From contig CAWCKY010000003.1 in the NCBI GenBank assembly GCA_963796275.1, forward strand, positions 1,536,001 to 1,600,000: a stretch of 64,000 nucleotides of DNA, read 5' to 3'. Under the pieces are notes generated by a model that was not told the origin of the DNA, did no database searches, and saw nothing but the letters and a program-made list of their open reading frames with translations. This document shows, in pieces, positions 2,866 to 41,963 of the stretch (position 1 is the first letter of the stretch; each line of letters starts with the position of its first letter). Made by a program: the position numbers and the translations under genes. Source of the DNA: an uncultured Acidobacteriota bacterium. GTDB taxonomy: Bacteria > Acidobacteriota > Blastocatellia > RBC074.

Positions 2866-3759
2866 TTACTGAGTTAACGTGCGGAAGGTATATTTGGCAA
2901 CATGCACATGGCGCCCTTGTGCTGTGAGCCCTTCGAGAGTCAATAAGTAATTATTGGGCTTTAATAGGCTGGTATTGAAACTGAGGGCTAGCATATCCTC
3001 GGAGCTCGGTTTCAGTCCGCTTCTGCTCCATATGCTTTGGCCTTCGGCCATCGAGAGGCTGGCGCGGTAAGATTGAAGATTTGGGTTAGGCTCTAGTTCA
3101 AGCAGGAGAAAGATTGACTTAGATGTGGGCGAGAGCGTGATTCTATTGACCGGTTGGGATGAGTCGATGCCACCGCCTCTCGCGAGGCTCAGAGCGAAGA
3201 CTGGTATTTCGGCCTGGGACCCCGCGGCTTTTTTCAATTCATTGGCCAAGCGCGAGCGCTCGACTCGTTCGCGTTCGAGCTGAGCGGCAAGCGTGTCTTT
3301 CTGCGCGGACAATTGCCGCTCGCGATACTGTATCTCATTTGTTATGTCGCGAGCCGCTTGCTCTCTCGCTTCATACTTGCGCTGCAGCTCCGAGGAACTC
3401 TGTTTGGCCTGAGCCAGTTCGCGGTGCGCGCTTCTCCATTCCCGGATCAGTAGAGCCACTGGCAGCGCGATCGCGAGCGTTACGCCCGCTAGCAAGGCCG
3501 CTCGACGCGCGCGGCTCAACCGCGCGACCCAAACTAACAGCCCTCCCACCCCAATCTGAAGATCGGTGCGCGCCCTCAATGCCTCTTCTGTCGCGATGGT
3601 CCCGAGCCCGGTGCGCAGGTCATCGGTCATCTCCAGTCGGTCAAGGCATTGCGTACAATCCACGAAGTGATCTTCGAAGCTCATCCGCTCTTCAGTGGAT
3701 AGCTTGCCCGACAGGTAGCGGTCGGTAATATTGTGTTCTTCTATGTACGAATGTTCCAT
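2866..3759 (-). CDS. Zinc-finger (zf-HC2/ZAS) transmembrane anti-sigma factor
   Basis: 297 aa; HFVDCTQC (HxxxCxxC) at the N-terminus, one TM helix, coiled coil, beta-rich C-terminal domain; directly follows the ECF sigma gene. Confidence 0.85.
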   Translation of the reverse strand: MEHSYIEEHNITDRYLSGKLSTEERMSFEDHFVDCTQCLDRLEMTDDLRTGLGTIATEEALRARTDLQIGVGGLLVWVARLSRARRAALLAGVTLAIALPVALLIREWRSAHRELAQAKQSSSELQRKYEAREQAARDITNEIQYRERQLSAQKDTLAAQLERERVERSRLANELKKAAGSQAEIPVFALSLARGGGIDSSQPVNRITLSPTSKSIFLLLELEPNPNLQSYRASLSMAEGQSIWSRSGLKPSSEDMLALSFNTSLLKPNNYLLTLEGLTAQGRHVHVAKYTFRTLTQ

Positions 3760-3814: not shown

Positions 3815-3844
3815 TAAAGTGTAACCATTCGTCTCAAAATTTCA
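3815..3844 (-). promoter_or_regulatory. Candidate ECF promoter, copy 3, overlapping the sigma stop codon and upstream of the anti-sigma gene
   Basis: Minus strand TGAAATTTTGAGACGAATGGTTACACTTTA; the TGA is the sigma stop codon. Confidence 0.6.
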
Positions 3845-4516
3845 TTGCCCGGCAAAAAAGGAAACAAAAAAGGCAAAAAGAGAAAAAATCCCGGGCCCTT
3901 TGTCTTTTGCCTCATTTTGTTCCTCTTTGCCTTTTTTATCTCCTGTTGCACGCACATAGAGTTCTCTGTAACGTTCTCGCGCACGATGGAGCACGAGATT
4001 AAATTGCGGGCCGGTCAATCCGTGATCCGCACATATTTTTTCCTTCTCTTCTCCGGTGATATAGAACCGGAAGAGCACCTGGACATCACGCTGGTTGGGC
4101 ATCTCCTTGAGAACTTGGCGGACGAGTTCGGCTTTCTCTTTCCGCAGCAACAGCTCGAGCTGATTGGGTGCGGGATGGGGAAGAGATGTTGTTTCTTCGG
4201 TTAGAGTCATAATCTCCCGCCGCGCGGCACGCCGGAAGTACTCGATGACCAGGTTTCTGGCCACGCCGCAGACGAACCCGGACAGCTTCTCCGGCTCTCT
4301 GAGGTCTCCCCGCCGGATCTTTTCCAGGACGAGGCAGAAGGTCTCCTGGTAGAGGTCATCAGCGATGGCGGAGCCGCCGACCTCCCGGCGAATGATGACT
4401 CTGACGCCGCGATTGTAACGCTCAACCAGTTCTGCCTCGGCTTGCCGATCGCCGGCCCTGATGCGGCTGACGAGATCAGCTCCACTGCCTGCCTGGTTTA
4501 TGGCTAGAGTTTCCAC
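3842..4516 (-). CDS. ECF-type RNA polymerase sigma-70 factor
   Basis: Region 2 (LVERYNRGV...ADDLYQETF...FVCGVARNLVIEYFRR) and region 4 (RFYITGEEKEKICADHGL...VLHRARERYREL); GTG start with GGAG RBS. Confidence 0.9.
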   Translation of the reverse strand: METLAINQAGSGADLVSRIRAGDRQAEAELVERYNRGVRVIIRREVGGSAIADDLYQETFCLVLEKIRRGDLREPEKLSGFVCGVARNLVIEYFRRAARREIMTLTEETTSLPHPAPNQLELLLRKEKAELVRQVLKEMPNQRDVQVLFRFYITGEEKEKICADHGLTGPQFNLVLHRARERYRELYVRATGDKKGKEEQNEAKDKGPGIFSLFAFFVSFFAGQ

Positions 4517-4537: not shown

Positions 4538-7500
4538 TTACCGTTTGCCATCCAGGTTGGCCCATTCACCGACCTGAATGAAGCCTGCCCAATAGTACGG
4601 ATGCCGCGGCTTGGCCTCCTTCAGCATCTCTAGTTGTATTTGCCTCAATGCTTCACCTCGCCCTTCCCCTTTCATCAATCTCCTGTAATAACCCGCCATC
4701 AATCTCCTCGTCTCCCTATCCGACACCGGCCACAAACTCATCACCTGCGTTTGCGATCCCGCCAGCACTAGCGCGCGCCTCAGACCATAGACGCCTTCAC
4801 CGTTCTTGACTTTGCCCACTCCGGTGTCGCAGGCGGAGAGCACTACAAGTTTCGTACCCCAGAGGTCGAGACTGGCTGCCTCCAAGGCGGTCAGCAGACC
4901 ATCATCATCGCTGCCCCGGTGTTGGTTGACTCCGGCCAGGGCTAATCCGGAGCGCACCAGTGGGTTCTCGATCTTGGCAGCCCACTTCATCAGGCGCGGA
5001 TCGGAGATGCGCAGGGGATTGCCGGTGAAGAGGCTCCCGGGATCTGATGGCGGGATCTCCTGATCTTCAAGGAAGAAGCCGTGAGTTGCGATGTGAAGGA
5101 CGCTGGGTGCGTGTGCCTCTTTGAGGGCGGCCTCGGTGGCTTCATCTCGCAGCAGCAGCGATGCCTCTGGAAGTACGGCTTTGATGGCCAGGGCTTCACG
5201 CCTTGTGCCCGGCAGTCCCTGGAAGAAGACCGCTCTTGGATCAATGCGCGCCGCTGCTTCGTCGCTGGGCTGATCTCCGGCTGGCGAATCTGCCGGATTT
5301 TGATCAAGCGGCGTGGCGGCGGCGGTCTCGCCTGTGCCGAAGAGAGGATTGGCCAGGACGAGTGGAGCGCTCTTGCTCGGCTCAGAGGTTTGGAGACTCA
5401 GCAGGTCACGGCCGCTGGTGAGATAGGTGATGGAATAGCGTTCGACCAGATACCTGTTCCGTTCATCGACCAGAGCGGCAAAAGGAATGAGGTTGAGCGA
5501 GCCATCGGGAGCGATCAGCAGGCGGCGCGTGTCGCCTGGCAATTGGGCCAGGAGCGAGCGTACAGGGCGCATGACTCTCTCATCGAGGGCGCGTGCGAGT
5601 TGGTTGACGTCAGTGCGGTTTGAATCGCGCAAGGCTTTGCGCCAGGCGTTTATCACGCGGTCGGTTGGGGCGGCTTCGCCCAGGTCAATCCATTTCGGCC
5701 GACCTTGCGTTGGTAGCAGATAGACGATGTAGTGCGGCGTGCTGCTCTTGTCGGTCTTTGGATCAAGCGGCGAATGGACGGCGAACTCGACCAAGGCGCT
5801 GTTTGCGGGGAGAGCAGCCTGGACAGCGGCGAGCGTGACTAGCTGGGTGTGCGTGCGAAACTCGGCGCTGCGAGAGCTGAGCTCCGCTTCTAGTTTATCA
5901 ACCTCGTCTTCGAGCGCATCGAGTCGTGTCTGGTGGATTTCAGTCTTAGCCGCGTCTGACTCTTTGAGTGTGAGTGCTGCCAACCGCGAGCGGGCATCAG
6001 AGAGTTTACCGAAGAGCTCTTGATCTTGTGGTGTAGCGTGGCGGCGCAGCGCAGTGATCGAATCGGTCATCGCATCGAGACTGCGGCCTTTCCGGCGCAG
6101 CAAGGTCGTGAAAGCAAGATTGAGCGCCTTAGGATCGTTGGGCGCCGCATGACTCTGAAGCGAGAGTGTGAAATCGGTCCCTTTAGAGAAGAGAGACAGG
6201 TAAGCAAGTTTCTGGCGTTCTGAGCCGATGGCGAGATTGAGCCCGAAGTTGCGTTCTACGATAGCGTTCGCGCGTGACAGAAATGTAACGGCCTGAGCGA
6301 CATCACCTTTTGCCGCGTAAAGCACAGCGAGATTGCTGAGATACTCAGCGATATCTGGGTTCTCTGCTCCCAACGCACCCTCTCCAATGGCCAGTGCGCG
6401 CTCGTAGAGTGGCTGTGCCTTATCGTAAGCGCCTATCTTGCGGTAGAGACTGGCCAGATTATTGAGAGAGCGCGCGAGATAGGGGTGTTCCAGCCCAAGG
6501 GTTTTCTCTCGAATGGCGAGCGCGCGTTGAAAGAGTGGCTGTGCCTTTGCATAGTCGCCTCTCTCGTAGTAAAGGGTTGCGAGAAGGTTGAGGGTGCTAG
6601 CGACATTGGGATGTTCTAGCCCCAGAACTTTTTCCCGGATGGCCAGTGCGCGTTGAAAGAGCGGCTCCGCCCTCGCATGGTCGCCTCTATTGCTGTGGGT
6701 GATGGCAATATTGTTGAGAGAAGCAGCGACATCAGGGTGTTCCGGTCCCAGCGCTTTCGTCCTGATGGCCAGGGTGCGCCGATAAAAAGATTCTGCCTTT
6801 GGATAGTCGCCTCTTTCCGCGTAGAGGTTGGCAAGGTTGTTGAGAGAAGCAACGACATCAGGGTGTTCCGGTCTTAGCGCTTTCGTCCTGATGGTCAGGG
6901 CGCGCCGATAAAAAGATTCTGCCTTTGGATAGTCTCCTCTTTCCATGTAGAGGTCGGCAAGGTTGCTGAGAGCATAGGCAACATCGGGGTGTTCTGGCCC
7001 CAGTACTTTCTCCCCGATGGTTAATGCACGTTGATAGAACGGCTCCGCCTTTGCATAATAGCCTCGCCGTGCGTTGAGGCTGCCAAGGTTGATGAGAGAA
7101 ATACCTACGATGCGATGTTCGGGCCCGAGCGATTTTTCCTGGATCGCTAACGTGCGTTGGTATAATGGTTCCGCCCTCGCGTAATCCCCTCTATTGTTAT
7201 AGATATTACCGAGATTGCTGAGAGAAGTGGCTACGTCTGGGTGTTCGGGACCCAGCATTTTCTCTCTAATAGTCAGCGTTCGTTGATAGAGCAGCTCTGC
7301 CCTCGCGTAATCACCCTTTTGGTAGTAGATGAGGGCTAGATTGTTGAGAGCATTAGTGACATCGGGATGTTCCGATCCCAAAACCCTTTCACAAATTTCT
7401 AGCACACGTTCAACTAATGGGCGCGCTTCGTCATACTTACCCGCCTGATACAGCTGGACGAACGCTGTACTTAGCTTACGTGCTTCATGCAAAGCGCGAT

Positions 7501-8011
7501 CAGTCTCTGTCGCAATGCGCAACTCTACCACTTGAATCTCGTATCGTCCGACCATTGCGCTCTTATATTTCGCCATCACGTCCAGCCGATAGCTGCCCGC
7601 CTCATCCGCCACCAATGACGCAAACTCTCGTCCCTGCGGCCTGGCTTCTCCATCAAATTCTGTCATCTGTTTGCCATCCGGTCCAAACAGCTTCACTACT
7701 ACATCGATGCCGCGTTGTTCAATCACCAGCTTGGCATATTGACCGGGAACAAGCGTCAGCTGATAAGAATGAGCCTGATCTTCAATCAACTCTCGTTCAA
7801 TTGATTGGCCCGGTTCGAACAGTCGAGCCTGCTGATTCTCCTGTGCTGGGATGATCACACTTGCGTAGAGTTTTGCTTCTTTGCTGGAGTAGAGCGTATC
7901 AGGAGATGCTTGGATATCAACGAAGGGCACGCTGATGGATAGGACTAGACTGCAATAGAAAGCCCAGTTACAAAACATACTTTGGATTGATCTTGGGACT
8001 GGGCGAACCAT
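4538..8011 (-). CDS. Exported TPR-repeat CHAT (caspase-like) protease
   Basis: Likely start ATG 8011 (GGAGGT RBS; ORF track starts at 8068); signal-like N-terminus, PPC-like domain, about ten 42-aa TPRs (LGPEHPDVA), CHAT domain with HIATHGFF (His 5081-5083) and LSACDTG (Cys 4829-4831), ends HPYYWAGF. Confidence 0.92.
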   Translation of the reverse strand: MVRPVPRSIQSMFCNWAFYCSLVLSISVPFVDIQASPDTLYSSKEAKLYASVIIPAQENQQARLFEPGQSIERELIEDQAHSYQLTLVPGQYAKLVIEQRGIDVVVKLFGPDGKQMTEFDGEARPQGREFASLVADEAGSYRLDVMAKYKSAMVGRYEIQVVELRIATETDRALHEARKLSTAFVQLYQAGKYDEARPLVERVLEICERVLGSEHPDVTNALNNLALIYYQKGDYARAELLYQRTLTIREKMLGPEHPDVATSLSNLGNIYNNRGDYARAEPLYQRTLAIQEKSLGPEHRIVGISLINLGSLNARRGYYAKAEPFYQRALTIGEKVLGPEHPDVAYALSNLADLYMERGDYPKAESFYRRALTIRTKALRPEHPDVVASLNNLANLYAERGDYPKAESFYRRTLAIRTKALGPEHPDVAASLNNIAITHSNRGDHARAEPLFQRALAIREKVLGLEHPNVASTLNLLATLYYERGDYAKAQPLFQRALAIREKTLGLEHPYLARSLNNLASLYRKIGAYDKAQPLYERALAIGEGALGAENPDIAEYLSNLAVLYAAKGDVAQAVTFLSRANAIVERNFGLNLAIGSERQKLAYLSLFSKGTDFTLSLQSHAAPNDPKALNLAFTTLLRRKGRSLDAMTDSITALRRHATPQDQELFGKLSDARSRLAALTLKESDAAKTEIHQTRLDALEDEVDKLEAELSSRSAEFRTHTQLVTLAAVQAALPANSALVEFAVHSPLDPKTDKSSTPHYIVYLLPTQGRPKWIDLGEAAPTDRVINAWRKALRDSNRTDVNQLARALDERVMRPVRSLLAQLPGDTRRLLIAPDGSLNLIPFAALVDERNRYLVERYSITYLTSGRDLLSLQTSEPSKSAPLVLANPLFGTGETAAATPLDQNPADSPAGDQPSDEAAARIDPRAVFFQGLPGTRREALAIKAVLPEASLLLRDEATEAALKEAHAPSVLHIATHGFFLEDQEIPPSDPGSLFTGNPLRISDPRLMKWAAKIENPLVRSGLALAGVNQHRGSDDDGLLTALEAASLDLWGTKLVVLSACDTGVGKVKNGEGVYGLRRALVLAGSQTQVMSLWPVSDRETRRLMAGYYRRLMKGEGRGEALRQIQLEMLKEAKPRHPYYWAGFIQVGEWANLDGKR
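6711..6962. repeat. Two near-identical tandem 126-bp TPR-coding units
   Basis: 6711-6836 and 6837-6962 share long identical runs such as CGCCGATAAAAAGATTCTGCCTTTGGATAGTC. Confidence 0.85.
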
Positions 8012-8443
8012 TCCGATACCTCCGTTATAGCTAAGGTTGATGTAACCGTCCATCTGGTTTAAGGCCAAGACCGCAAGGAGCTAAAGCGACCTCAAGTTGA
8101 CGTTACTTAAGATCACCAGCTGTCAAACGGCACTGTCAAACGGCTGGCCTATTTCCCCTGCGTGAAAGCCCGATGAGTATGTGTCGGGCTGAACCCTATT
8201 AACCGGGATACCTAACCAATAGAGTCCTCTGATATTTGTTTTGCATCTGCATGCGCGGGGCGGCGAATACGCTTGGGGAATGCAACTCGGGGGCTTCATT
8301 ATAGATTGGAGCTTGGAGCTGGCAATATACCTTGATAGAAACTTGAAGGTAAAGGGGGCTGAATCATCCCGGCTACCTCTTAAAGTGACGTTAAATTTCC
8401 GGCTCAGGTAGGCTTCGGTAACTTTAATAAATTTCCTCGATGC

Positions 8444-11131
8444 TTACCTTTTGCCGTCCAGGTTGGCCCATTCGCCGGACTGAATGAATGCCGCCCAGTA
8501 AAAGGGATGCCGCAAGTCCTTTCGATCACGCAGTATCCGCAACTGCGCTTGTCTCAGTCCCTCACTTCGTGCTTGTCCTTGCTGGAGTGCCCTGTAATAT
8601 GGGATCAGAAGTTCTTTCGTCGATTCATCCGAGATTGGCCAGAGGCTCATGACCTGGCTCTCTGACCCAGCTAGCACGAGCGCGCGCCGCAATTCTTGCA
8701 TGGCTGGGCCGCTTTTCACCTCACCAACACCTGTATCGCATCTCGACAGGACAACCAGTTTTGTACCCGATAAGTCCAGATAGGCGGCTTCCATCGCTGT
8801 CAGCAGACCGTTATCATCTCCGCTTTTGCTCTGGTTGGCTCCCGCCAACGCGATGCCCGAGCGCCGCAGAGGATTGGATCCCTGGGCCGCTAACTTGCTG
8901 AGCCTCAGATTGGGGGACTCCTCCGTGACAGGTAGAGAGTCGGCAGGCGGCTCGTAGCGCGCAACGAAGAATTCAGTGACGACGCCCTTCTCCTGCAGAT
9001 CGGCGCCGTACTTGTTCGCTTCGGCGCTGCTCGAAAAAGTTCCGGCGCGCACGCGAAAGAAATCCCCTTTGCCCTTCACGCTGCTTTTGACAATGTATGC
9101 TTCCACGCCCCGCGCTTTGAGCCGCTCGACCTTCTCGTTCGCAGTTTCGAAAGCCGGGGTTGCCTCAAACTGAACAGTGAATGGTTTTGGCTGTGGAACT
9201 TCGGAATTTCCAGGTGAACCGACGCGCAATGGGCCGAACTCGGCAGTTGCAGAATCTTGATTGTCGAGGAAGAAGCCGTGGGTCGCGATATGGAGAATGC
9301 GCGGACCGCGGGCCTGTTTGAGAGCCGTCTCGGTCGCGCCTTCCCGCTGCAGAATCGATGCTGCCGGGAACATTTCTTTGATCGCCAGCGTTTCGCGGCT
9401 CGTGTCAGGCAGAGGGGGGACAAATGTCTGCGCCGGATCTATTCGTTCCAGCGCTTGCTTATCGCCAGGCGGTTTTGCGTTGTTGCGATCTCGTTGTTCG
9501 GCGATGGTGGCGGAACTGCCGAAGTCGGGGTTGCCCACCACAAGCGGAGGGCTCTTGCTCGGTTGCGAAGTTTGCAGCCGCAGCAGATCACGTCCGGTGG
9601 TGAGGTAACTGATCGTGTAGCTCTCGATCAGATACCGGTTCTGTTCATCGAGCAGAGCAGCGAACGGGATAAGATTGAGCGAACCATCAGGGGCAATCAG
9701 CAGACGACGCGTATTGCCAAGTAACGCGCGCACAGGTTGCATCACTTTCTCGTCCAATGCGCGCGCGAGACGGTCGATGCCCGGCCGGTTTGGGCTGCGC
9801 ATCGCATCGCGCCAGAGATGCACCGCTTGATCGATCGCCGCTGCTTCGCCGAGGTCTATCCGCTCAGCTTTACCTCGCGTTGCGAGAAGATAGGCGAGAT
9901 AGCGCGGCGGCATGCTTTTCCCACTCTTTGGATCCACCGGTGTGAAGTAAGCGAATTCGACCAGAGCGCTGTCGGAAGGGAGCTCGGCCTGGATGGCGTC
10001 GAGTGTGGCCGGCTGCATGTTCGCGCGGAATCCGGCGTTGCGCGCGCTGAGCTCTCCTTCGATCTCACTAACCTTAGCTTCGAGAGGCTTAATCAGTTTG
10101 CGAAAACTCTCGGAACTGTACGCGTCCGGCTCTTTAGACCTGAGCTCGGCCAACTGCGAGCGCGCATCGTCGAGTCTATCGACGATATCTTTATCTTGAT
10201 CATACCGCCGGAATGCGGCGAGCGTGTCGATCATCGCATCGAGCCCGCGCACTTTCCGGCGCAACAAGGTCGTAAAAGCCAGATCGAGCGCCTGCTGATT
10301 ATCCGGGGCACTCAGGCTCTGGAGCGATAAAGTCAGGTCTGTACGTCTATTGAATAGATCCAGATAATCAAATTTCCGGCGTTTCGAGCCGGTAGCGAGA
10401 TTCAAGTTGCATTCGTCGATATAGTTGGCGCCCGCCGTAAAGATCATGGCCTGTCCGATATCGCCTTTTGCCGCATAGAGCATGGCGAGCTCGTTGAGAG
10501 CATTACCTGTAACAGGGTGTTCCGTTCCTAGCACCTTTTCACGGATATCTCGCACGCGCCCAATCAATGGGATCGCTTCATCATATTTTCCTGCCAGGAA
10601 TAGTCTGCGGGATCGTGAAACCAGGACGTCGGCTTCATACAAATCGCGTTCATCCTCCTTGGCGGCGCGCAACATAACCGCCTGAATCACATATTGCCCG
10701 GCTGCCGCGTCTTTATTTTTCGCACGCACATCCAGGCGGTAGCTGCCCGACTTTTCCGTGACCCACGAGACGATCTCTTGTCCCTGGATTCTGCTGTCTG
10801 CGTCGAACTCTTTGATCTCCTCGCCGTCCGCTCCGACCAGCTTCACCGCCACGTCGATGCCGCGTTGATCGACCACAGCTCTCACGAATTGACCGGCGAC
10901 GAGATTCATCTGATAAGGATGGGATTGATCCCCAGCCAAATCACGGACTATAGGTTTTCCCGGCATGAGCTGTCTTATCTGCTCGGTTGCCTGCGACGGA
11001 CTGATCACCAAGACGGGAGCCTCTGCATTGTTGGTTATGACATCAGCAGACGCTCGTACCAGAATAAGCGGCAGAATAAGGAATAGTATGAGATTGTATT
11101 TTTGAATTGATCCGGGGAATCGATAAATCAT
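8444..11131 (-). CDS. Exported CHAT protease with short TPR region and an inserted SPOR domain
   Basis: Likely start ATG 11131 (GGAG RBS; ORF track starts at 11215); paralog of the adjacent gene; HIATHGFF (His 9278-9280), LSRCDTG (Cys 8738-8740); 8951-9184 encodes PFTVQFEA...ANEKVERLKARGVEAYIVKS...FFRVRAGTFSSSAEANKYGADLQEKG...FFV, a SPOR-like sequence. Confidence 0.88.
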   Translation of the reverse strand: MIYRFPGSIQKYNLILFLILPLILVRASADVITNNAEAPVLVISPSQATEQIRQLMPGKPIVRDLAGDQSHPYQMNLVAGQFVRAVVDQRGIDVAVKLVGADGEEIKEFDADSRIQGQEIVSWVTEKSGSYRLDVRAKNKDAAAGQYVIQAVMLRAAKEDERDLYEADVLVSRSRRLFLAGKYDEAIPLIGRVRDIREKVLGTEHPVTGNALNELAMLYAAKGDIGQAMIFTAGANYIDECNLNLATGSKRRKFDYLDLFNRRTDLTLSLQSLSAPDNQQALDLAFTTLLRRKVRGLDAMIDTLAAFRRYDQDKDIVDRLDDARSQLAELRSKEPDAYSSESFRKLIKPLEAKVSEIEGELSARNAGFRANMQPATLDAIQAELPSDSALVEFAYFTPVDPKSGKSMPPRYLAYLLATRGKAERIDLGEAAAIDQAVHLWRDAMRSPNRPGIDRLARALDEKVMQPVRALLGNTRRLLIAPDGSLNLIPFAALLDEQNRYLIESYTISYLTTGRDLLRLQTSQPSKSPPLVVGNPDFGSSATIAEQRDRNNAKPPGDKQALERIDPAQTFVPPLPDTSRETLAIKEMFPAASILQREGATETALKQARGPRILHIATHGFFLDNQDSATAEFGPLRVGSPGNSEVPQPKPFTVQFEATPAFETANEKVERLKARGVEAYIVKSSVKGKGDFFRVRAGTFSSSAEANKYGADLQEKGVVTEFFVARYEPPADSLPVTEESPNLRLSKLAAQGSNPLRRSGIALAGANQSKSGDDNGLLTAMEAAYLDLSGTKLVVLSRCDTGVGEVKSGPAMQELRRALVLAGSESQVMSLWPISDESTKELLIPYYRALQQGQARSEGLRQAQLRILRDRKDLRHPFYWAAFIQSGEWANLDGKR

Positions 11132-11503
11132 ACCGATGACTCCGTCAAAACCGTTGGCCATCCAGGTTCGTCTGGGTGAAACTTTCCGATGCCTCCCAGA
11201 ATGTAAAGTTGACAATCCTTATTTCAGAATTTGATGGAATCGAAAATTACTAATTTCTATCTGTAGACACGGAGCGCAAAACATCAGCGAGAGTGAGAAC
11301 TTGCAGGTTGATAATGAGTCGGGGGTCAGATCGGGGTATAAGGTTACTGCTTTAAAGTAATCGGATCGTCAGTCGAACGTGGTTTCTTTTCTCTTCCAAT
11401 TTGTATATGTTCTTCAAACAAGTGTCAAAATTGCTAAGTCATTATCGTAAGTCGTTTAATCAGAACTGAAGTGGTCCTATAGCAATTAATTTTGAGTAAC
11501 TCC

Positions 11504-12496
11504 TCATCGCTCAACTTTGAAATAAAATTCCCTGATATTCACCCATTCACCACGATCGTTATTTCCGCTGAGCATCATGCTGAAGGGGCCGTTCTGCAAT
11601 TGTTTGGCCGGTATTTTCAACACCAGGGACGAGCCCGATTTGACGCGGCCGGCTTTGATATCACCGCGCCTCCATATCTCATTCCCAGCCGAGTTTTGTA
11701 CGGCGGCGCTAAATCTGCTGTATCGATCGGCCGGTAAATCCGGGAAATTCAGGATGACCTGGACCGTCTCATTGCCGGGCGGAATGCGTATCAGCCGCGG
11801 CGCGCTATTCCCCACGCTTCTTATTCCAGGAACTGTCCAGATGAAAGAAGCAATAACTGTTTTTTTCGGCTCCGGTGTGGGCAAAACTTCCGGCTGTTGC
11901 TGTACGATGCTGAATGCCGGCTTGGACTGCTCGTCTGGGAGGTTCTCATCTGCAATCTCCTGCTTCGGCTTTTCTTTTTCTTCAGGGGATGGCAGTGATT
12001 CGTTTTTCGCAATCTCTTGCACGAATGGCGTCTGGAACTCGAATATTTTTACTGCCCCGATAACCACCAAAATCACTAATGCTGCTGCCATCGAGATTCC
12101 AAATGCCAACCTCGGCCCGCGGAACGGCGCGAATAAGGACTCCCAGATTGAGGGAGAAGGTTTTTTTACCAGCTCGTCCGTGTCGTAAAGAACAGCATAG
12201 CCGTATTCCTGTTCGATAGATTCTAGCGGTAGGGTAGTGACCAGGGCTTGGAAAAAACGTACCTGATCAATCCGTGCCGGTGTGGTCAGATAATTACGCT
12301 CAAATCGGACCCGGCCGGATGGAGAAAGTTTGCCGTTGACATATCCCTCTATTAAATCTTGTTCGACGGCCTGGAGCAGATCAAAAATCTCGGGATCAAT
12401 GAAATACTCCATCTCCATCTCTAACTTGTCTTTAATGGATAACTCACCCAACAGATATCGGACCATCTGTTGTTCAATGTCTAATCTTACATCCAT
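11504..12496 (-). CDS. Anti-sigma-like bitopic membrane protein
   Basis: 330 aa; N-terminal YLLGELS...EQDLIEGYVNGKLS...RFERNYL helical repeats, one TM helix, Pro/Glu linker, C-terminal beta domain resembling that of 2866..3759; lacks HxxxCxxC. Confidence 0.7.
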   Translation of the reverse strand: MDVRLDIEQQMVRYLLGELSIKDKLEMEMEYFIDPEIFDLLQAVEQDLIEGYVNGKLSPSGRVRFERNYLTTPARIDQVRFFQALVTTLPLESIEQEYGYAVLYDTDELVKKPSPSIWESLFAPFRGPRLAFGISMAAALVILVVIGAVKIFEFQTPFVQEIAKNESLPSPEEKEKPKQEIADENLPDEQSKPAFSIVQQQPEVLPTPEPKKTVIASFIWTVPGIRSVGNSAPRLIRIPPGNETVQVILNFPDLPADRYSRFSAAVQNSAGNEIWRRGDIKAGRVKSGSSLVLKIPAKQLQNGPFSMMLSGNNDRGEWVNIREFYFKVER

Positions 12497-12843: not shown

Positions 12844-12855
12844 TGCGGCTTCAAT

Positions 12856-12930
<75 letters not shown>

Positions 12931-13457
12931 CAATGAAATCAAAAGGTTGTGACTTCCATATTGGAAGTTTTACTCTTTTGCGACACTTTCAACTTCGACT
13001 GCACTATCGATAATCAAATTTTTCCATTACGATCTTCACTTCGTTGAATATTGAAAAGAAACTCTGAGCTGCGATGATCTCATGCTATGCCTGTGATAAA
13101 AATCCAGACAGCTTGCTGAAGACTCAGAAACATGTGTTCGGCGCGCGTGCAGGAGCCAGCATAGGAGCACTGGATAGTCTCGACCGCTTCCCACCACATT
13201 CCGAAGGCTGCCAGCTTCCCTAAATATCCGGATCAAGAGCATTCTGTGCGCCAGTTTGATAGGCGGCGGGCCTCGTCGCGGTTCCGAGGCTCTCCTAAAG
13301 AAATTAAGTGTACCGCTTCTGAACGGTCGTATCGTTTATGTTCTGAGCAAGACTGCCGTCCGTCAAACCAGGGCCATCTCAGTCAAAATCATTTGTGGTA
13401 TTATGCAAGGCTTTTGTGCCAAAGAGGTTTACTCATCATCGTTCGATTGGAGAACTA

Positions 13458-23478: not shown

Positions 23479-26400
23479 TCAGAAAGACTGTCCGAATCTG
23501 ATATGAAATGCGCCGCGCGGTTGTCTTAAAATGACTCCTGAATTCGAGAGGTAAAATGGCGGGTCGATCAGGAAACCGTAATCGACGCCGATTGGTCCGA
23601 TCGGCGTGATGATGCGCAGGCCGAGGCCTACCGAATTCGTCATATTACTGAAGTCTATGTCGCCCACTCGCCGGAAGACGTTGCCCAGATCATAGAATGG
23701 CACGATACGGAAGCGCTGCGATAGAGGATATCGCAGCTCGAAGTTAAAGACCGTCAGTGCATCGCCGCCCACCGGCACGAACGTCGGCAGCTCACACGTA
23801 GGGGGAATCTCATCGCACGATCTGCCTTTGCGCGGCTCCAGGACTACCTGTGGCCCGGCAGCCTCGTACCTGAAGCCGCGCAGCGTGGTCGCCCCACCCG
23901 TGAAGAACCGTTCGGTGATCGGTAACCGTCTCTCGCTCTCGTTCTCCCCGATTATCCCATTGTCGTTGCGGTCCGATGGCCGAAACATCCGGGCGAGCCC
24001 GATGCGCGCCGAAAAAGCCAATGTCGTGTTTCCCAATAACGGAAATTGAGGATCGAGAGTTTTATAAGTCTGATATGTCCCGAAAAACTTGTTGAAGGAT
24101 TCATTACCGCCGAACAAGGTGGCGGCAATAGAATTCTCCACGCTGACGAGAGCGCCTCTGGTCGGATTTAGCACGCTGTCCCGATTGTCGCGCGTAAAGC
24201 CCACGGAGACCATCCCGAGCCGGATCGCCCGTTCATTACGCGTCACCTCAGTGTCAGGTAGAGCATCTACGTCATCACCGAACAATTTCGCGCGCTCCAG
24301 GTTGTACCGGAAACGCAACGAAGTACGGTCATCCAATTTGCGTTCGGACTGAATGAATGCTGCGAGGCGCTGGATGCCCAAATCTACATCTTCATCGCTA
24401 TCCTCTACGCTGCCATCATCGGTCAAGACGCGGGGCCTCACAAATGGCTGCAGGTCCGAATTGCGGTTGTAATAGGCGGAGACGGTCGTCGGCAACCGCC
24501 AGCCGAACGGTCGCATGTCGGTGAATGAAAGCTGGCTGAATTGTTCTATCTGGCTGGCGCGCATCCGGAGCGATAAGGAATTGAGGGTGCCGTAGAGATT
24601 CGTATTGGTGATCTCCGTCAAACCTCGGATACCGTCATCCGTCGAAAAACCCAAACCATAAACGAACATCATCGGCTTGGCTTCGGTCAGTTTGATGGTA
24701 ACTTTATGCGCTGACCCATCACCGACGATGGTTGGAACTGAGCTGATGGTGACTTCCCGAAAGGCATTGGTCGCGAACAGATCGCGTTGCGTCCGGCGGA
24801 CCTTAGCCGGGGTCAGCACATCGCCGATTTTGAAATCGAGGTAGCGGTGGACCCAATCCTCGCCGGTCTTCGTAAGCCCCGTGATTTCAATTTCGCCGAC
24901 GATTGCGCGCACTCCCTCATCGATTTTGTATACCAGAATCACGCCTTCCTCGGCCGTATCGCCCAGCTCGAGGGTGGCCTCTGCCTCAAGAAATCCTTGT
25001 TGCTCGTATAGCTGTTTGATCTCCTGTGCGCCGGCCCGCGCTCGCGGACGTGAGAATGCCTCGCCCCGTTGAATCGGGATTACCTCGCGTAACTCCTGTG
25101 CAGATATCAGAGTGTTGCCGCGCAAATTGATCCCGGCGACCGTGGATTGCGGGCCTTCGACCACATCGAAGATGACCACCAGATCATCGCTGTCGGGCTT
25201 CACACCCCAACGCGACTGAACGCGAGCGGTGCGGAACCCCAGATCGCGAAGGCCGCGGCGAATCGTCTCCTCGTCGTTTCGTAACCGGTCATTGCTGGTC
25301 AACCCGCGAACATAGCCGCCGATGAGCGGAAAGTCTTTCAGGAACGGTACGCCGCCTACCTGGCTCGCCTTCTGCGATTGTAATTGCCCCACGATATCGG
25401 GCAGCTTGATCTGATCGGTGCCTTCGATGCGGATCTCCGCCAGATCGTGTTTAGCATTCGGCTGGATATCGTAAAACACTTTCAATTTCTCTCCGCTGCA
25501 GTTTTCCGGATCGCAGCGGAAGTTGACTTCAGCGAAGAAATATCCCTGCTCCTGCAGATATTCGCGCAACCTGCTTTCGCCGAGGCGGGCAAGCGAGCGG
25601 CTGAAACCCTGTGTCATCACAGGAAGCAGTTCGCGCAATTTACTATCCTTCAGCTTCAGGTCTTCGACGGGACTGACGTTCACATCGGCTGGCGGCAGTT
25701 TCGGCCTGGCAGGGCGGTTCGAGGAGATGCCTGTGTCCGCGCCGCCACCCGGCCGCCCGAGCACATCGTCGGGACTGAATCCGAGCGAAAAACGTTTGCG
25801 GCCGCGCAGCTCGACCGTCAGCACGCCGTCATTGTCTCCCTGTCGCGCGGAGGTCCCCCCCTGCGTGAAACTCGCGAGCGCTGAAAAGCGGCTGGTGATC
25901 GTGTATTCGGCGAGCGCCGTTTGAAACTGATCCGCTGCCAGGTTCGTCGAATAGCTCAGGTAGAGATTGCGAGAAAACTGCTGACCGATGGTCAGCCGCG
26001 CCGCCGGATTCGTATTCGGGCGGATCACAGGGTCGATCTGAAAACGGCTGATTCCGAGCAATTCTTCCGTCGGTTTTGAAATAAACCCGGAGGTGACAAG
26101 CGATGCTGCCGCGCCGGCGCCCGATCGCAGAAGGTCCTGACTCGTCATTGAACCGATTTCTGCCCGCCCCGTCGTTATCAGCGCGATGACTTCATCTCTC
26201 GACAGGGACGGTTCGGACTGCAGGTTCAACTCGATCGCATCCACGGGCCCCACAAAACCGATGGTGACGCGATAACCGCCGATCTCGCTCTCGGCGGAGA
26301 GGTTGAGGAACGGCTCGCTATTACCGGCGGGAAACTCGATAGAGCCGCTGGTTATTTCATAGCGCTGCCCGCGGAAGCGCACTGTTCCACCGTCGCTTTC

Positions 26401-29400
26401 AATTCGCCCGACCGGGTCCGGATTGTTCAACGTGCCGTTCAGGTTGATCAGCGCGGAGCCGACGGCATTGATCTGCTTATTTTGAACGATGAGCGAATCG
26501 TCGGCTTCGAGGCGAATATTTAGACTGATAGGAGGGATACCCGCGCGCCGCATCCTGCCCCCACCGAATCCTCCCGATGTCAGGCCGGTCGTCCCGCCGG
26601 CGATCAGGTTGTCCAGATCGATCCTCGGCACGTACTCAGCCTGCGGAATTGTGATCGTCCCGCCCAGCGTCTGCCCTTGTTGCGTGCCGCGCAGCGACAG
26701 ATCGCCATTCGCCGTCGCGGCGATATCCTGATAATTGACTACCAGGTCTCTGCCTTTGATATTAAATCGCCATTCGCTCGGCTGCATCTGTGCAAGCCTC
26801 ACTTCACCGTTCATCTCCAGCTTCCCGTCGTTAGCATTCGCGGTGAATTGATCGAGCGCCATCCGGTCGCCTTCGAGCGTTATACTGCCGGTGCCTTCGG
26901 TAATAATTATGGGAAGATTTTTCGAGGCTAAGCCGAATTCGCTGGCATTGATTCGGCCGCTCAGTTGCGGCGCTCCGGCGGTCCCGGTCGCTTTCGCGTC
27001 GATGACCATCGTACCCGAGAACGTGTAGTCGGGAATTAGTGTCGGAAGCTGTGCGAGATTGACGGTGCCCTTGAGCGTGAAGTCTAATCCGGCATCATTC
27101 ATCAAACCGAGCGTCCCGTTGAAGCTCAGGTCGAGCCCCTGGCCGGTGATGCGGGTACCGCTGACGTTGACCTGTCTCGCTGCGAGTTCGATGGTGACGG
27201 GCGTTTCGATCTTCACCGGCGTCTCTTCCATTTCGAGCTCGACTTTAGTCAGCGTCAGCCCGCCGCGCAGTTGTTCAAAGCTCGCATTGCCGATTTCGTC
27301 TACCGTCGGACCTTCCAGACGCAGACTGCCGCTGAGTTTTCCCTCGACGTTCATCTTGAGGTTGGGCGCAAATAACTCGATTACCGGTGCGACGTTCTGG
27401 TCGACCAGATTTCCTATGATGGTAGCCGGGCGCCCGGGTTTGCGCAGCTCTATGGTGCCCCTGATCACCTCGGGTCTGTCCGGCGCCGCCGTCGTGGAGA
27501 GGATGCCAGTGACCAGGCCGAAAGACAGGCGGCCTCCATTGCCTGTCCTCGCCCCAAATCTCAGGACGCCCGCGTCGCGCCCATTGATTTTAACGTCTTT
27601 CCCTTGTGCGATCAGCCGGAGCTCGAGGCTCTCCCAATCAAGCTCGGATTTTTTATCGGCTATCGTCTTGCCGCTGACAACAAGATCGAGATTTGCGGTA
27701 CCATCCACGCGCGTATCTTTTAGCTCGAAGGCATCCACCAACGACTGAAGCGAGATTTGATCGCTCTTGCCCTGAAGCTTGAATGAAAAATCATCGAGGT
27801 TGAGTTCTCCGCTGGCGCTGAGCTGGCTCTGCGCCAGCCTCACATCCAGGTGCTCGACCTCCGCACGTTTGCCGCTGAATTTCACGCTTGCCGCGGCACT
27901 TTGCGCATCCTGATTAGCAATCCTGCCGTCTACGAGAGTTATCCGCGCCGTCCCGTTGAAATTCGCAGGCAAGCCCGCCAGATTCGCTTCACCTGAAACA
28001 TCTCCTGTAATGAATTGGCTGACATCGGGTGATCCGGCGGCGGCGAGTATCGTTGCCAGATCGACGCGATCGATAATCGCAACGATCTTCCCGCTTTCGG
28101 CTTCCTTAGCGAGCGGAGTGTTCAGATCGAATTTGAGCGAGCCGCCGTCTGTCGTGGAGATCAGGCCTTTCTCGACCCGTATCTCATCGGGCGAAATAAC
28201 GATGTGGCCCGTCAGGGCTCCGAGCAGCGCATCGCGTAATCCGATGGTTGCCGCGTTCACATCGCCTTCAATGATCGCTTTCTCCAGACGGCCGGAGAGA
28301 CGGCCATCGAATTTAAGGTCGCCGATGATCTGCGGTTCGTATTCGGCGATGTATGGGCGAGCGGCTTCGATCGACCTCGCGATCTGGAGGAACTGTTCAG
28401 CCTGCGTTGAGTTGAGCGAGACCCGAAAATCAGATTCTCCATCGATGGAGAGCTTGCCTCCGGCCAGGAGCTTCGACGCATCGGTCGATAGCTGTAACTC
28501 GCCAATCTCGAATACGCCATCGTGCGCCTTGACCGCGACTCGACCGGTGACGGGTATGGCATCGACGGAATCCGGAGCATCGCTCGCCTTGCCGTCAAAG
28601 CTGGCATTGATGGTGCCCGCGAGTGTGCGCAGATCGGCGCCGCTGATGCTGACTTCGGCATCCCCGCTGATCTTACCCATCAGCGGGACCTTATTGCCCG
28701 CGGAGTTCTCGGCTGCAATCAGGGAAAAGACATCATTCGTCTGAATGTCGATGAAGCTCGCTTTCGCCCGGGACGCCGCGCCGCGACCGAGCGGCAGCGT
28801 ATACTCGCCCGAAACGGAGCCGCCCAGCAGCTCTGCTTTTATGCCGTTCAGCGTGAGAGCCGAGTTGTCGAAAACCGCCTGCGTCGTCGCGTTACTGAAA
28901 TTGACTCCCGCGATCGCACCCTGATTGAGTCTCGCCCCGGCCTTCACTTGATAACGCAGGCTCCGGTCGCTCGGGTTGAGAGATATGGTCAGGCCATTGA
29001 GCGTCAGATTCGAGAGCTTGCTGTCCGGCCATTCGACCATGGCGATGTGAGCGTTGGATGCGTTCGCTTGAGCACGGCCAGAGTTATAATCTCCTTTGAA
29101 ATTATCGATGGCGATGCTCCCGATCCGCAGCCTGTCAACCGTCGCAGACTCGGCGCGCACCCGGCTGCTGGCGAAATCTACGCCATTTTCTCGCGATTCC
29201 ACGTTGAACTGTGCAATCTGAACGCCGCGCAGCCTGGTAGTCGCTACCGCCATCTCGTCCGCATTCAAACCGCCGTTGATCTTATAAATCGCGCCTTCAC
29301 CCTCGATCCGTCCTTTGGCGGATGCATGGCCATTCATTGTGGCATCGGCCAGAAAGAGGCGAGCAGCTTCCTCGAGCTTCACCCGTGAATCAAAATCGAA

Positions 29401-30220
29401 GCCATAACGGAAAGCTTTCCAGTCATCGATCTTTCCGTTGGCCGCCAGTTCGGCGATTCCCGCTTTCAGATTGAGATGATCGAATCGGGCGCCTTCTTCG
29501 GAGATATAGCCCGCGAGGCTGAGCTTATCGATTGCGGTCTCTCTGTTCTGATAACTTAAACGGCCGCCCGCGCCCTCCAATTGAAGCGCCATAGTTACCG
29601 GAGCTGCTGCGTGCGGTCGCGCTGCGATTCGGATTCCGGTTAAATCTGTCTCGATCCTGCGGGCGCGGTCTTTCACGTGGATCGCGCTATCCGTGATCGT
29701 CGCCAGCAGTTGCGAGTAGTCGACAGTGATCCGTTCCTTGGGAGAGCGCGCGCTGCGCAATCGCTTGATGTTTGCCCGCCCCTGCTCGTCGATTTCGAGA
29801 TATAGATCGACGCCTTCGAGGTTCAAGCTTTTGAGGACTATCTCACGGCTAAGACTCAGGGCATAGGGCTCGCGGATATCGACGTCCACCTCCACCAGTT
29901 TGAGCGAGGCAATGAGTTGTCCGGTCTCATCATTAAAGATCTTAAAATCGGATAGCCGAGCGGTCTGGGCCTTGAGCGAAATCTTCGTTCCCCCGATCTC
30001 GCTGCGCAGCCCGTAATCTTTCAACGCGGCGTTTAGCTGTTCCGCGACAAGCCGGTTGAATGATTCAGAGCGAACATATACCCATGCGGCAATACCGGTA
30101 CATGCCGATCAGAAGAATGAGTGCCGCGAGCGCAATCAGCGCCCGCTTCAGGGTAGGCAGATACTTACTCCGTGGCACAGATGGGGGTGTGTCAGGTTGT
30201 TCTGAAGATGTGAACTCCAT
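23479..30220 (-). CDS. TamB/AsmA-like protein fused to POTRA domains and an Omp85 (BamA/TamA-like) beta-barrel; one-base frameshift at ~30100
   Basis: 2181-aa ORF 23479..30024: beta-taco repeats, TamB C-terminal signature (LQSEPSLSRDEVIALITTG...RLTIGQQFSRNLYLSYS), POTRA motifs (YLQEQGYFFAEV, LYEQQGFLEAE), ERFFTGGATTLRGF, terminal FGQSF. ATG 30220 encodes the TM anchor in a shifted frame. Confidence 0.88.
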
Positions 30221-40326: not shown

Positions 40327-41963
40327 ATGGCCAAAGAGGACGAGACTCCGCGAACCAAATCCTGCCGAAATCGAGAACCTAATCGAGCAGATTCGAGGAA
40401 CGAATCTGGACCCGCGAGCCAAAGAGAAAGTAGAGCGACTGTTAAGAACCGTCCTGACCTTGGCGGAACTGCTCCAAAGGAAGAATACTTCGATCAAAAA
40501 GCTACGTGAAATGATCTTCGGCAAGCGGACGGAGAGACATCAAGCGAGAAAGGCCGAAGGCCAGGAGAAGGCGCCCGAATCCGAGAGGTCGGATGACGGC
40601 CAACCGAAAGCGGCCAGTGATCAAGACGCGCATGCGGAACTGCGCGTAGTTGGAAGCAGGGACAACCCGAAACGGAAAGGGCACGGACGCCGCGCGGCCT
40701 CCAATTACAGCGGGGCAAGGATCGTCAGATGCCGGCATGAACGTTTGAAAGCGGGCGACGACTGTCCAGCATCATGTGGCGGGCGGCTCTACGACCTGAA
40801 GGAGCCTACGGCGTTGATGTAATTCACGGGGCAACCGCTGATCACGGCCACCAAGTTCGAACGGGAGGCGCTGCGCTGCGCCAAATGCCAACGACGTTAT
40901 GTAGCGCCGTTGCCTGAAGGAGTGAAGGATGAGCGGTACGACGCGACCTGTGACGCGACGATCGCGCTAATGAGATATGGCGGCGGTCTTCCCTGGCATC
41001 GACAGGCAGGATTGCAGGCGATGGGCGGAGTGCCATTAGCAGAAGCGACGATGTGGGAACGGTGCGAAGCGACGGCGAACGCCGCGATGGGAATCTTCCT
41101 GCGACTGACGCGCTTGGCGGCCGACGGCGAGGTTATGCACACCGACGACACCTGGGTCAGAATCCTTTCGTGTTTGAAAGAAGACAAGGAAAAGAAAGGG
41201 CGGGCGACAAACACCAGCGGGATCGTAGTGAAGGCCGGAGGGCGCAAGATCGCGCTTTATTTGAGCGGGAGGCGTCACGCGGGGGAGAATCTGGCGGAGT
41301 TGCTCGGAAGCGCGACGAGAGTCTGGCGCGGCCGATCCAAATGAGTGACGCCCTGGCGGCCAACACGAGCGTGGAGAAAGGCGTGATCCGTTCCTGCTGT
41401 CTGGCGCACGCCCGAAGGAAGGTCTTTGAATTGAAGGATGACTATCCGGCCGATTGCGCGGTGGTACTGGACTCATCGGCAAGGTCTATGGATACGAGGC
41501 CGAGACGGCAGAGATGAATGGCGTACGGCGGTTGGCCTACTATCAGGAAAAGAGCGGGCCGGTGATGAGGGAATTGAAGGAATGGATCGAGGCGCGATTC
41601 TCTGACTGCCATGTGGAGCCGAACTCGAATTTGGGCAAGGCGCTGCAATATTGGCTGAGTCATTGGGAAAAGTTGACGGTGTGGCTCCGCGAGCCGGGCA
41701 CGCCGATCGATAATAACGAGTCAGGGCGGGCGTTGAAACAATTCACCCTGATGCGAAAGAACTCGATGTTCTTCAAAACCGAGCACGGGGCGACGGTCGG
41801 TGATGTGTTGGCATCGCTGATCCGGACTTGCCGATTGAATGGCGCCAATGCCTGGGACTACCTGTTAACGATTGTTCGCAACAAGGAGGATGCGCGAAGC
41901 AATCCGCATCTGTACCTGCCTTGGAATTACAAGGGAGGCGAGGCGGGATCGCTGGCGGCTTGA
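40327..41963 (+). pseudogene. tnpC: IS66 DDE transposase pseudogene
   Basis: Fragments LREMIFGKRTE, CPASCGG, MHTDDT, CCLAHARRK, LGKALQYWL, IDNNESGRALK...RKNSMF; in-frame TAA at 40820 and frameshifts near 40350, 41305 and 41470. Confidence 0.88.

Follow-up and report, generated by a model that had tools for sequence, protein, structure and literature searches.

The only periplasmic TPR-CHAT system to have been studied is that of DdvA and DdvS in Myxococcus xanthus, where DdvA is described as a transmembrane anti-sigma factor with a periplasmic TPR-CHAT module, a His-Cys dyad that is at rest and an activating signal given as unknown; the module is proposed to act as a site-1 protease that cuts the linker of the partner protomer before RseP (PMC11506125). 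Our analysis of a 64,000-nucleotide stretch of DNA from an uncultured soil Acidobacteriota bacterium of the class Blastocatellia (assembly GCA_963796275.1, contig CAWCKY010000003.1, positions 1,536,001 to 1,600,000; hereafter the window) concerns a related gene, whose product, SPOR-CHAT, has a SPOR domain nested inside its CHAT protease domain, and which lies among genes for a sigma factor of the extracytoplasmic function (ECF) class and for anti-sigma-like proteins. It is quite possible, though somewhat short of probable, that SPOR-CHAT is tethered to peptidoglycan and forms one component of a proteolytic sigma switch like that of DdvA, but split.

SPOR-CHAT resembles DdvA/DdvS (PDB 8rot; fold match E 8e-7) in its predicted periplasmic TPR-CHAT module, its His-Cys dyad and its ECF sigma/anti-sigma setting, and the proposed logic would also be shared, namely a CHAT site-1 cut in a flexible periplasmic linker followed by RseP-type cleavage. 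It is not, however, a DdvA-type member: it is predicted to be a separate exported protein with neither a fused anti-sigma domain nor a transmembrane helix (Pfam, hydropathy), its SPOR domain is inserted after the catalytic His, this copy has a single TPR unit, and the His-to-Cys spacing is 180 residues here against 45 in DdvA (H862, C907). The DdvA paper mentions no link to peptidoglycan, a word that does not occur in its text (PMC11506125). The best structural match is to Craspase (Csx29 with Csx30 and CASP-sigma; PDB 8d9g, 7y8t, 8eey; E 4e-11), where a TPR-CHAT protein cuts a sigma inhibitor, the cleavage of Csx30 by Csx29 being reported to relieve the inhibition of an ECF-like sigma factor (PMC10028731). 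Unlike SPOR-CHAT, Craspase is cytoplasmic, RNA-guided and activated through Cas7-11, and it has neither a SPOR domain nor an export signal; identity between the two is ~12%. A further parallel is the DegS-RseA-RseP-sigmaE pathway of Escherichia coli, in which, as would be the case here, a periplasmic protease with a sensory appendage (PDZ there, SPOR here) initiates the regulated intramembrane proteolysis by which a single-pass anti-sigma factor is broken down (PMC10028731, PMC11506125). DegS differs in being a serine protease activated by the C-termini of outer-membrane proteins; there is no homology, and the likeness is one of working principle only.

In SPOR domains, a Gln on the first strand is described as the only highly conserved residue that contacts the glycan (Q270 in RlpA, Q251 in FtsN; it contacts N-acetylmuramic acid/N-acetylglucosamine), and septal denuded glycans as the target to which these domains bring proteins (PMC6895207). 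The insert of SPOR-CHAT is like the domains of FtsN, DamX, DedD, RlpA and CwlC in scoring above the cut-off of the SPOR profile, in having the same fold (TM-score 0.77 to RlpA) and in conserving this Gln. To our knowledge, known proteins carry their SPOR domain at one end of the chain, joined either to a wall hydrolase or to a membrane anchor, whereas here it is nested inside another catalytic domain; nor do we know of a SPOR domain in HetF of Anabaena, the founding CHAT protease. HetF is likewise a CHAT-family protease, tied to cell division (PMC8406250, PMC9457339), but is reported to reach the divisome by other means, and its gene does not lie among sigma/anti-sigma genes. CHAT proteins have also been noted in the context of group ECF54 (PMC8999054).

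The closest published item to SPOR-in-CHAT that we found in the literature is A5ECX2 of Bradyrhizobium, a secreted peptidase of the caspase fold that also carries domains presumed to bind peptidoglycan; it has Peptidase_C14 in place of CHAT and YARHG in place of SPOR, its YARHG domains follow at the C-terminus and do not lie between the catalytic residues, and it is a single sequence of predicted function (PMC3355149). Full-text searches of the literature, whose coverage leaves out most subscription-journal papers, did not turn up any protein described as having SPOR nested within CHAT or within a caspase domain, in line with the statement of an earlier, sequence-only annotation of this DNA (the first-pass annotation) that no characterised protein of this architecture was known. 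The present analysis adds a short-form clade with an eroding active site and a retained SPOR domain, a partner membrane protein, a probable donor of the SPOR domain and a narrow distribution.

A SPOR domain nested inside a CHAT domain

The SPOR-CHAT gene and the parts of its product, from N- to C-terminus, are the following.

8444..11215, minus strand: short-form TPR-CHAT gene with a nested SPOR domain, a 923-residue open reading frame (ORF) from TTG 11215
11045..11131, minus strand: predicted Sec-type signal peptide, residues 29-57 (basic n-region, hydrophobic YNLILFLILPLILV, RASA before DV)
10664..10951, minus strand: N-terminal beta-sandwich (strands of the AlphaFold2 (AF2) model, residues 71-166 of the database form P0001)
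9983..10657, minus strand: helical TPR/scaffold region with one TPR_12 unit only (Pfam, AF2 model)
9248..9772, minus strand: first half of the CHAT domain, ending with the catalytic His646, codon 9278-9280 (Pfam, motif positions)
9191..9256, minus strand: flexible linker 1, from the His strand to SPOR (predicted local distance difference test score, pLDDT, <50; P0001 residues 636-658)
8951..9190, minus strand: SPOR insert with the order beta-alpha-beta-beta-alpha-beta; the Gln in TVQ (Q682) is invariant (Pfam, model)
8894..8941, minus strand: flexible linker 2, from SPOR to the second half of CHAT (pLDDT <50; P0001 residues 741-756)
8474..8878, minus strand: second half of CHAT; LSRCDTG contains Cys826 (codon 8738-8740), and the motif SGPAMQEL has diverged (Pfam, alignment)

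Pfam recovers the CHAT domain (PF12770, caspase-hemoglobinase fold, clan CD-like; E 1.5e-77, 261.3 bits, cut-off 24) in two stretches that flank the insert and cover profile positions 2-161 in the first half and 156-288 in the second; between them, at residues 676-748 (nt 8972-9190), lies a match to SPOR (PF05036; E 1.4e-10, 41.8 bits, cut-off 21, profile positions 2-72 of 76), which scores 44.2 bits in a whole-genome scan. His646 in HIATHGFF (HIATHG, residues 642-647) and Cys826 in LSRCDTG (SRCDTG, residues 824-829) align with the HIATHGFF and LSACDTG of the family. The first-pass annotation had placed a SPOR domain in the CHAT domain, between the catalytic His and Cys, over positions 8738 to 9280; the nesting is as described, and the span runs exactly from one catalytic residue to the other, since its two ends are those of the codons of Cys826 and His646. 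A BLASTP comparison with the adjacent paralog (4538..8068) aligns residues 209-668 (55% identity) and 749-923 (60%) and leaves the SPOR segment unmatched. The insert that had been proposed at 8951-9184, from FTVQFEA, which begins at nt 9181, to FFVARYE, which ends at nt 8951, has indeed no counterpart in the paralog, and the SRC that had been read in place of SAC at the Cys motif is a real difference (LSRCDTG here, LSACDTG there).

When folded alone, in a model built from 18 aligned inserts and relatives, the 80-residue insert reaches a pLDDT of 86.6, with its elements in the RNP-like beta-alpha-beta-beta-alpha-beta order. Its top PDB match is the SPOR domain of RlpA bound to denuded glycan (6i09_A, TM-score 0.77/0.80, root mean square deviation 2.2 A), followed by 6i05 (apo RlpA SPOR) and CwlC 1x60, with DedD 6ztg at rank 6 and DamX 2lfv lower. 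Identity to solved SPOR domains is 15-22%, which is consistent with the outcome of a sequence-only PDB search with the 80-residue insert, where no SPOR entry was returned and the sole hit was a chance match of E 0.94. Q682 is invariant in all 18 aligned inserts and relatives and nearly so in the 99-row family alignment. Profile and fold thus both bear out the assignment, and on sequence and model the insert is a genuine SPOR domain, not a chance similarity. Its fold and conserved Gln suggest that it would bind glycan.

The ORF opens at TTG 11215, P0001 (905 residues) starts at ATG 11161, and the family consensus opens with the Met encoded by ATG 11131, a codon with GGAG 8 nt upstream of it; the true start is likely to be ATG 11161 or 11131 rather than TTG 11215. 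A single stretch of the protein, at the N-terminus, has a 19-residue mean Kyte-Doolittle hydropathy of at least 1.6, and it is followed by ASA, in agreement with the export that had been claimed for this protein. An N-terminal hydrophobic segment of this kind is found in 72 of the 94 family rows that start with Met. SPOR-CHAT is likely to be exported via this Sec signal and to be periplasmic.

The full-length AF2 model (pLDDT 77.3, predicted template modelling score 0.72; 99-row alignment) has a disordered N-terminus, a beta-sandwich, the helical TPR/scaffold and CHAT, in that order, and the SPOR domain is well folded in it (block pLDDT mostly 81-88) between the two linkers of ~22 and 16 residues, where pLDDT falls below 50. 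The beta-sandwich resembles pre-peptidase C-terminal and collagen-binding domains (Foldseek 3afg_B, 5sv5, 1nqj_B; E 4e-5 to 3e-4). The best Foldseek matches are Craspase TPR-CHAT Csx29 (8d9g_A, E 4e-11), DdvA (8rot_A, E 8e-7) and human separase (9hma, E 1e-6); global TM-scores to TPR-CHAT structures are only 0.24-0.30, because of multidomain flexibility.

A short-form clade with a drifting active site

A tree of 118 CHAT regions, from which the insert columns had been removed, groups the short forms (857-909 residues) in one clade of 17 rows (Shimodaira-Hasegawa-like approximate likelihood ratio test 100), nested among long forms of 1100-1450 residues. The clade comprises 16 clusters with 64-86% full-length identity to SPOR-CHAT and has lost all TPR units but one; Pfam finds one TPR_12 unit in SPOR-CHAT versus eight in the adjacent paralog. 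Across 169 CHAT columns that are at least 90% conserved in 83 long forms, the median number of differing columns is 18 in the short forms (range 8-38; this protein 18), 3.5 among 72 long forms with SPOR and 5 among 11 that lack it, a measure for which the columns were defined on the long forms and changes shared by the clade were counted repeatedly.

In this protein, changes are seen at 16 of 268 family-conserved columns. Those near Cys826, at columns conserved to at least 90%, replace A by R before the Cys and E by P, G by A, V by M and G by E after it, such that the family motif NGEGVQGL reads SGPAMQEL here; SRC or SGC instead of SAC occurs only in the closest relatives of this protein. Elsewhere in the clade the dyad itself is lost, with His gone in P0023, P0026 and P0095 and both His and Cys gone in P0063, and the SPOR domain is unblemished in all four. 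Mean pairwise identity among 16 short forms is 0.80 in SPOR, 0.75 and 0.76 in the two CHAT halves and lowest, 0.59, in the linkers. SPOR is thus the best conserved part and is kept in members without a dyad; in this lineage it seems, like the overall scaffold, to be under tighter selection than the catalytic site. The protein had initially been called a protease: the dyad is indeed present, but SRC, the four changes after the Cys and the loss of the dyad in four clade members suggest that this copy may be a poor one. The drift around its active site makes the role of sensor or adaptor more likely for it than that of main protease.

Sigma and anti-sigma-like genes around SPOR-CHAT

The SPOR-CHAT gene is one of five co-directional genes on the minus strand in the first 12.5 kb of the window, which in gene order encode an anti-sigma-like protein, SPOR-CHAT, a TPR-CHAT protein, an ECF sigma factor and a likely zinc-binding anti-sigma (ZAS) factor. 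The other four are the following.

11504..12496, minus strand: single-pass membrane protein of 330 residues, with an anti-sigma-like N-terminal domain without zinc ligands
4538..8068, minus strand: canonical exported TPR-CHAT paralog of 1176 residues without SPOR, with HIATHGFF, LSACDTG and GEGVYGL intact
3842..4516, minus strand: ECF sigma factor; 21 nt separate its start from the long TPR-CHAT gene before it (Sigma70_r2, E 1.2e-11)
2866..3759, minus strand: single-pass protein of 297 residues with H31-x3-C35-x2-C38 (sequence, one transmembrane segment)

The link to ECF signalling drawn in the first-pass annotation is thus found in the gene neighbourhood, where sigma and anti-sigma-like genes adjoin SPOR-CHAT. 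The paralog has an unbroken CHAT domain and eight TPR_12 stretches, and the sigma factor passes the NCBIfam model TIGR02937 (53 bits, cut-off 42.9). The sigma ORF has 224 residues; most of its ~70-86% identical relatives have 194-196 and cover 87% of it, and one relative of 222 residues covers all of it, so that its start or end may be mis-set or the extra length may be a lineage-specific extension. The ZAS motif consists of HxxxCxxC in the N-terminal domain, followed by one transmembrane helix. Given its H31-x3-C35-x2-C38 and one transmembrane segment, the 297-residue protein is likely to be the cognate ZAS-type anti-sigma factor; it has no Pfam match, zf-HC2 included. Besides its one transmembrane helix, the 330-residue protein has a variable linker rich in Pro, Glu and Gln and, at the C-terminus, a conserved beta-rich domain. 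The two are weak paralogs (E 8.6e-5) with the common N-terminal pattern RYLLGELS...YF.D, and NCBIfam holds no family name for either of them or for SPOR-CHAT. A predicted complex of residues 61-905 of P0001 with residues 176-330, the predicted periplasmic part, of the 330-residue protein scored 0.00 in both runs, which had no controls, and is evidence neither way.

For eight of the ten anti-sigma-like paralogs in this genome, a CHAT ORF is found within 1 kb or is part of a fusion with the paralog; random placement gives a mean of 0.37 and a maximum of 4 (2000 trials). One 1235-residue ORF elsewhere in the genome (C1:218143-221850, plus strand) fuses an anti-sigma-like N-terminus (E 6.7e-6 to the 330-residue protein) to a CHAT domain and is DdvA-like. 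At two other loci with an intact SPOR-CHAT gene (L195 and L199), a sigma-like gene is followed by an anti-sigma-like gene, and at a third (L196) a sigma-like gene lies 1.8 kb upstream. The sigma factors at the different SPOR-CHAT loci are not of the same group; the sigma-like protein at L196 (L196:5140-5727, minus strand, contig C3 of the same genome) resembles the type III-E CRISPR-associated RpoE-like sigma factor (NF041236) with an E-value of 1.2e-5, below the cut-off. No sigma gene precedes the gene for the 330-residue protein in the window, unlike at L195; directly upstream of it, on the opposite strand, is a tRNA-Pro gene with anticodon TGG (12855-12931, plus strand).

The 330-residue protein is a recurrent partner of short-form SPOR-CHAT genes. 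In 8 of the 15 foreign short-form clusters, the longest contig is equal in size to that of an ortholog of the 330-residue protein (5433, 11278, 3323, 14751, 7736, 63693, 12268 and 3983 bases). Among orthologs of the sigma factor, there is a match of 80512-base contigs with P0003 and one of 32030 bases with a long form that has SPOR, a form that lacks it and an ortholog of the 330-residue protein. These matches are indirect evidence that the gene block is conserved.

In the 375-nt gap between the SPOR-CHAT and TPR-CHAT genes we noted a promoter-like site, TTGCCA and TATAAT 16 nt apart (8298-8325, minus strand; 11 of 12 positions of the sigma-70 consensus), which as a consensus match suggests a separate transcription unit for the long CHAT, sigma and anti-sigma genes; the scan for such sites returned 11 where 6.3 were expected. 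Further along the window, a 2181-residue ORF (23479-30024, minus strand) with TamB (residues 1059-1395), POTRA and Omp85 (residues 1809-2155) regions appears to fuse the two subunits of the translocation and assembly module (TAM), and an IS66-family transposase fragment of 169 residues, covering profile positions 178-283 only, lies between outer-membrane barrel genes (41454-41963, plus strand).

Distribution of the family and source of the insert

Among the 120 best clusters at 90% identity, retrieved with the C-terminal 324 residues of SPOR-CHAT, 105 carry an insert of 76-83 residues (76-78 in all but two), and both His and Cys are kept in 100 of these 105; His-to-Cys spacing ranges from 167 to 217 residues across clusters. 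The clusters bear only the name 'CHAT domain-containing protein' and come from metagenome-assembled genomes of Blastocatellia/Acidobacteria and from soil metagenomes. The architecture is therefore not a singleton, with more than 100 clusters carrying SPOR in CHAT. When 1.84 billion proteins are clustered at 50% identity, 6 representatives of the family remain at E <=1e-30.

The source genome (9.46 Mb) has 41 Pfam CHAT matches from roughly 30 genes, and holds four intact copies of SPOR-CHAT and one broken one. In the latter (C6:1194095-1195977; L198:8095-9977, minus strand), the frame stops after the first half of CHAT and a second piece starts in mid-SPOR (VRDKGTFFRVRAGNF...), as in a pseudogene of the same family. 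A match from His to Cys that includes SPOR was found in only 2 of the 87 genomes of the order (G000 and G054). A genome of the same genus (G060, 87% complete) gave no match with this query, and one candidate inspected in it is without SPOR; 400 other sampled Acidobacteriota genomes gave none at E <=1e-30, with the best candidates, up to 8 per genome, scored. The insert is absent from 78 related loci in genome contigs and present in 13 (14 ORFs) of 78 related loci in metagenome contigs, all of them long forms or fragments on short contigs. The search of sequencing runs listed no RNA run, and three DNA runs each with no more than 0.06-0.07 of the words. The family is limited to a small number of uncultured Blastocatellia from soil.

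In the order as a whole, at least 60 of 87 genomes encode a stand-alone SPOR protein of ~350-450 residues, a count that includes one row from an unpublished genome (G064), and its SPOR domain is 36-55% identical to the insert among the matches listed. The copy in the source genome (L201:6589-7785, plus strand, contig C6; 398 residues, SPOR at 44-115) matches a hidden Markov model of the insert with an E-value of 9.5e-34, far above the four other stand-alone SPOR matches of the genome that were scored; it is an exported protein with an N-terminal SPOR domain and ~280 residues without a Pfam or NCBIfam match. On sequence similarity, the inserted SPOR domain was probably copied from the stand-alone SPOR protein of the lineage, the direction being taken from the wide occurrence of the stand-alone protein and the narrow one of SPOR-CHAT. 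The tree, for which rows similar to a SPOR-bearing query were chosen, requires 6 switches between presence and absence of SPOR, 3 of which well-supported branches make unavoidable, and hence does not separate one gain with several losses from repeated gains. Among the library of representatives, one protein of 1505 residues (P0283) has 7 distinct stretches that match the SPOR segment of the query and is apparently a multi-SPOR repeat protein.

Discussion

From the architecture, fold, conservation and neighbourhood described above we infer the following model. SPOR-CHAT would be an exported, periplasmic member of the TPR-CHAT family, which these Blastocatellia keep beside genes for ECF sigma and anti-sigma factors, and the arrangement would be that of DdvA/DdvS split up, with the TPR-CHAT module separate from the anti-sigma factor. 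A SPOR domain, probably copied from the housekeeping SPOR protein of the lineage, would have been inserted on two flexible linkers after the catalytic His, and would dock the protein where amidases have stripped the strands of peptidoglycan of their peptides, either in the septum or in damaged wall. Docking would place the CHAT module near the single-pass anti-sigma and anti-sigma-like proteins encoded alongside, whose long unstructured periplasmic linkers are likely site-1 targets; cleavage of such a linker would then free the sigma factor via regulated intramembrane proteolysis. The present copy, its own protease activity weak or altered, would most likely serve as a sensor or adaptor anchored to the wall and work with the canonical TPR-CHAT protein next door.

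Several observations weigh against this model of a tethered, split switch. The 330-residue protein has no zinc motif and scores 16.7 bits with zf-HC2, short of the required 22.2; the intact SPOR-CHAT gene at L197 has neither a sigma nor an anti-sigma gene nearby, and at L195, L196 and L199 the sigma-like neighbours do not reach the TIGR02937 cut-off. The synteny of the short forms rests on contigs of equal size and not on sequence, and the drift was counted on columns defined on the long forms, with changes shared by one clade entering many times. The disordered linkers could also mean that the SPOR domain is unrelated to catalysis, and the presence of both His646 and Cys826 here is compatible with an ordinary active protease.

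If the protein were such a fully active protease, denuded glycan on the SPOR domain might pull the loop after His646 and align the His-Cys dyad allosterically. The insertion point, directly after the catalytic His, would suit this, as would the resting state of DdvA, in which the His is described as facing away from the Cys, and the allosteric regulation reported for TPR-CHAT proteases (PMC11506125); moreover the dyad is intact here and in 100 of the 105 SPOR-bearing clusters. We nevertheless consider it unlikely, given linkers that are disordered in the model, variable in length and the least conserved part of the protein, and hence poor transmitters of a signal, and given changes at five family-conserved positions around the Cys in this copy. 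Long, disordered and poorly conserved linkers favour tethering over tight allosteric control, and of the earlier suggestion that the protein is 'targeted to or activated by' peptidoglycan it is the targeting that fits the model better, while activation loses ground. Another possible role is that of a HetF-like protease of cell division or envelope remodelling that SPOR brings to the septum and that would degrade a regulator of division or wall synthesis there, with the nearby sigma genes incidental. This agrees with the targeting of SPOR domains to septal denuded glycans (PMC6895207), with reports of HetF as a divisome component and as a protease of PatU3 (PMC8406250, PMC9457339) and with the lack of a sigma gene at L197. 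The association of CHAT genes with anti-sigma-like paralogs is, however, far from random (8 of 10 versus 0.37 expected) and recurs at 4 of the 5 intact SPOR-CHAT loci examined, and no division genes were seen in the neighbourhoods, which leaves this explanation a little less likely still.

A sensor of phage or predator attack, detecting lytic damage to the wall and switching on an ECF-driven defence as proposed for DdvA, would fit the great expansion of the CHAT family in this genome and the faint likeness of the L196 sigma-like protein to NF041236, and DdvA/DdvS is reported to control a CBASS-CRISPR island, with the signal given as unknown (PMC11506125). Yet the six neighbourhood proteins match no PADLOC defence family except a generic TPR model, and no defence genes were recognised within the 64-kb window; we regard this role as improbable. 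Least probable, in our view, is that SPOR-CHAT is one of ~30 CHAT genes in functionless decay towards a pseudogene. The contraction of the TPR array from eight units to one, the 16 changed columns, which include the residue before the Cys and four after it, the copy already broken elsewhere in the genome and the short-form relatives without a dyad would all be expected of decay, but not an intact reading frame of 923 residues, a clade with good support whose 16 clusters are 64-86% identical to this protein over the full length, SPOR and CHAT halves conserved well above the linkers or a partner gene conserved together with the short form.

Returning to the split, DdvA-like switch, a more specific version of it would have the short form, with catalysis largely given up, pair with the adjacent TPR-CHAT protein like the facing protomers of DdvA, so that denuded glycan licenses cleavage of the anti-sigma linker in trans. 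We hold this pairing to be unlikely as it stands; if it were true, naked glycan strands, arising from septation or lytic attack, would be the long-sought input of the periplasmic TPR-CHAT/ECF switch.

The reading of amidase-stripped glycan by SPOR domains and the release of sigma factors by periplasmic proteases that cut an anti-sigma factor are each well understood separately. The presence of a SPOR domain inside a catalytic domain, beside sigma and anti-sigma genes, points to a testable input for such a system, namely the processing state of peptidoglycan. Within the family, the series from active-looking long forms to short forms that have lost the dyad and kept SPOR could show a protease in the course of becoming a sensor or adaptor.

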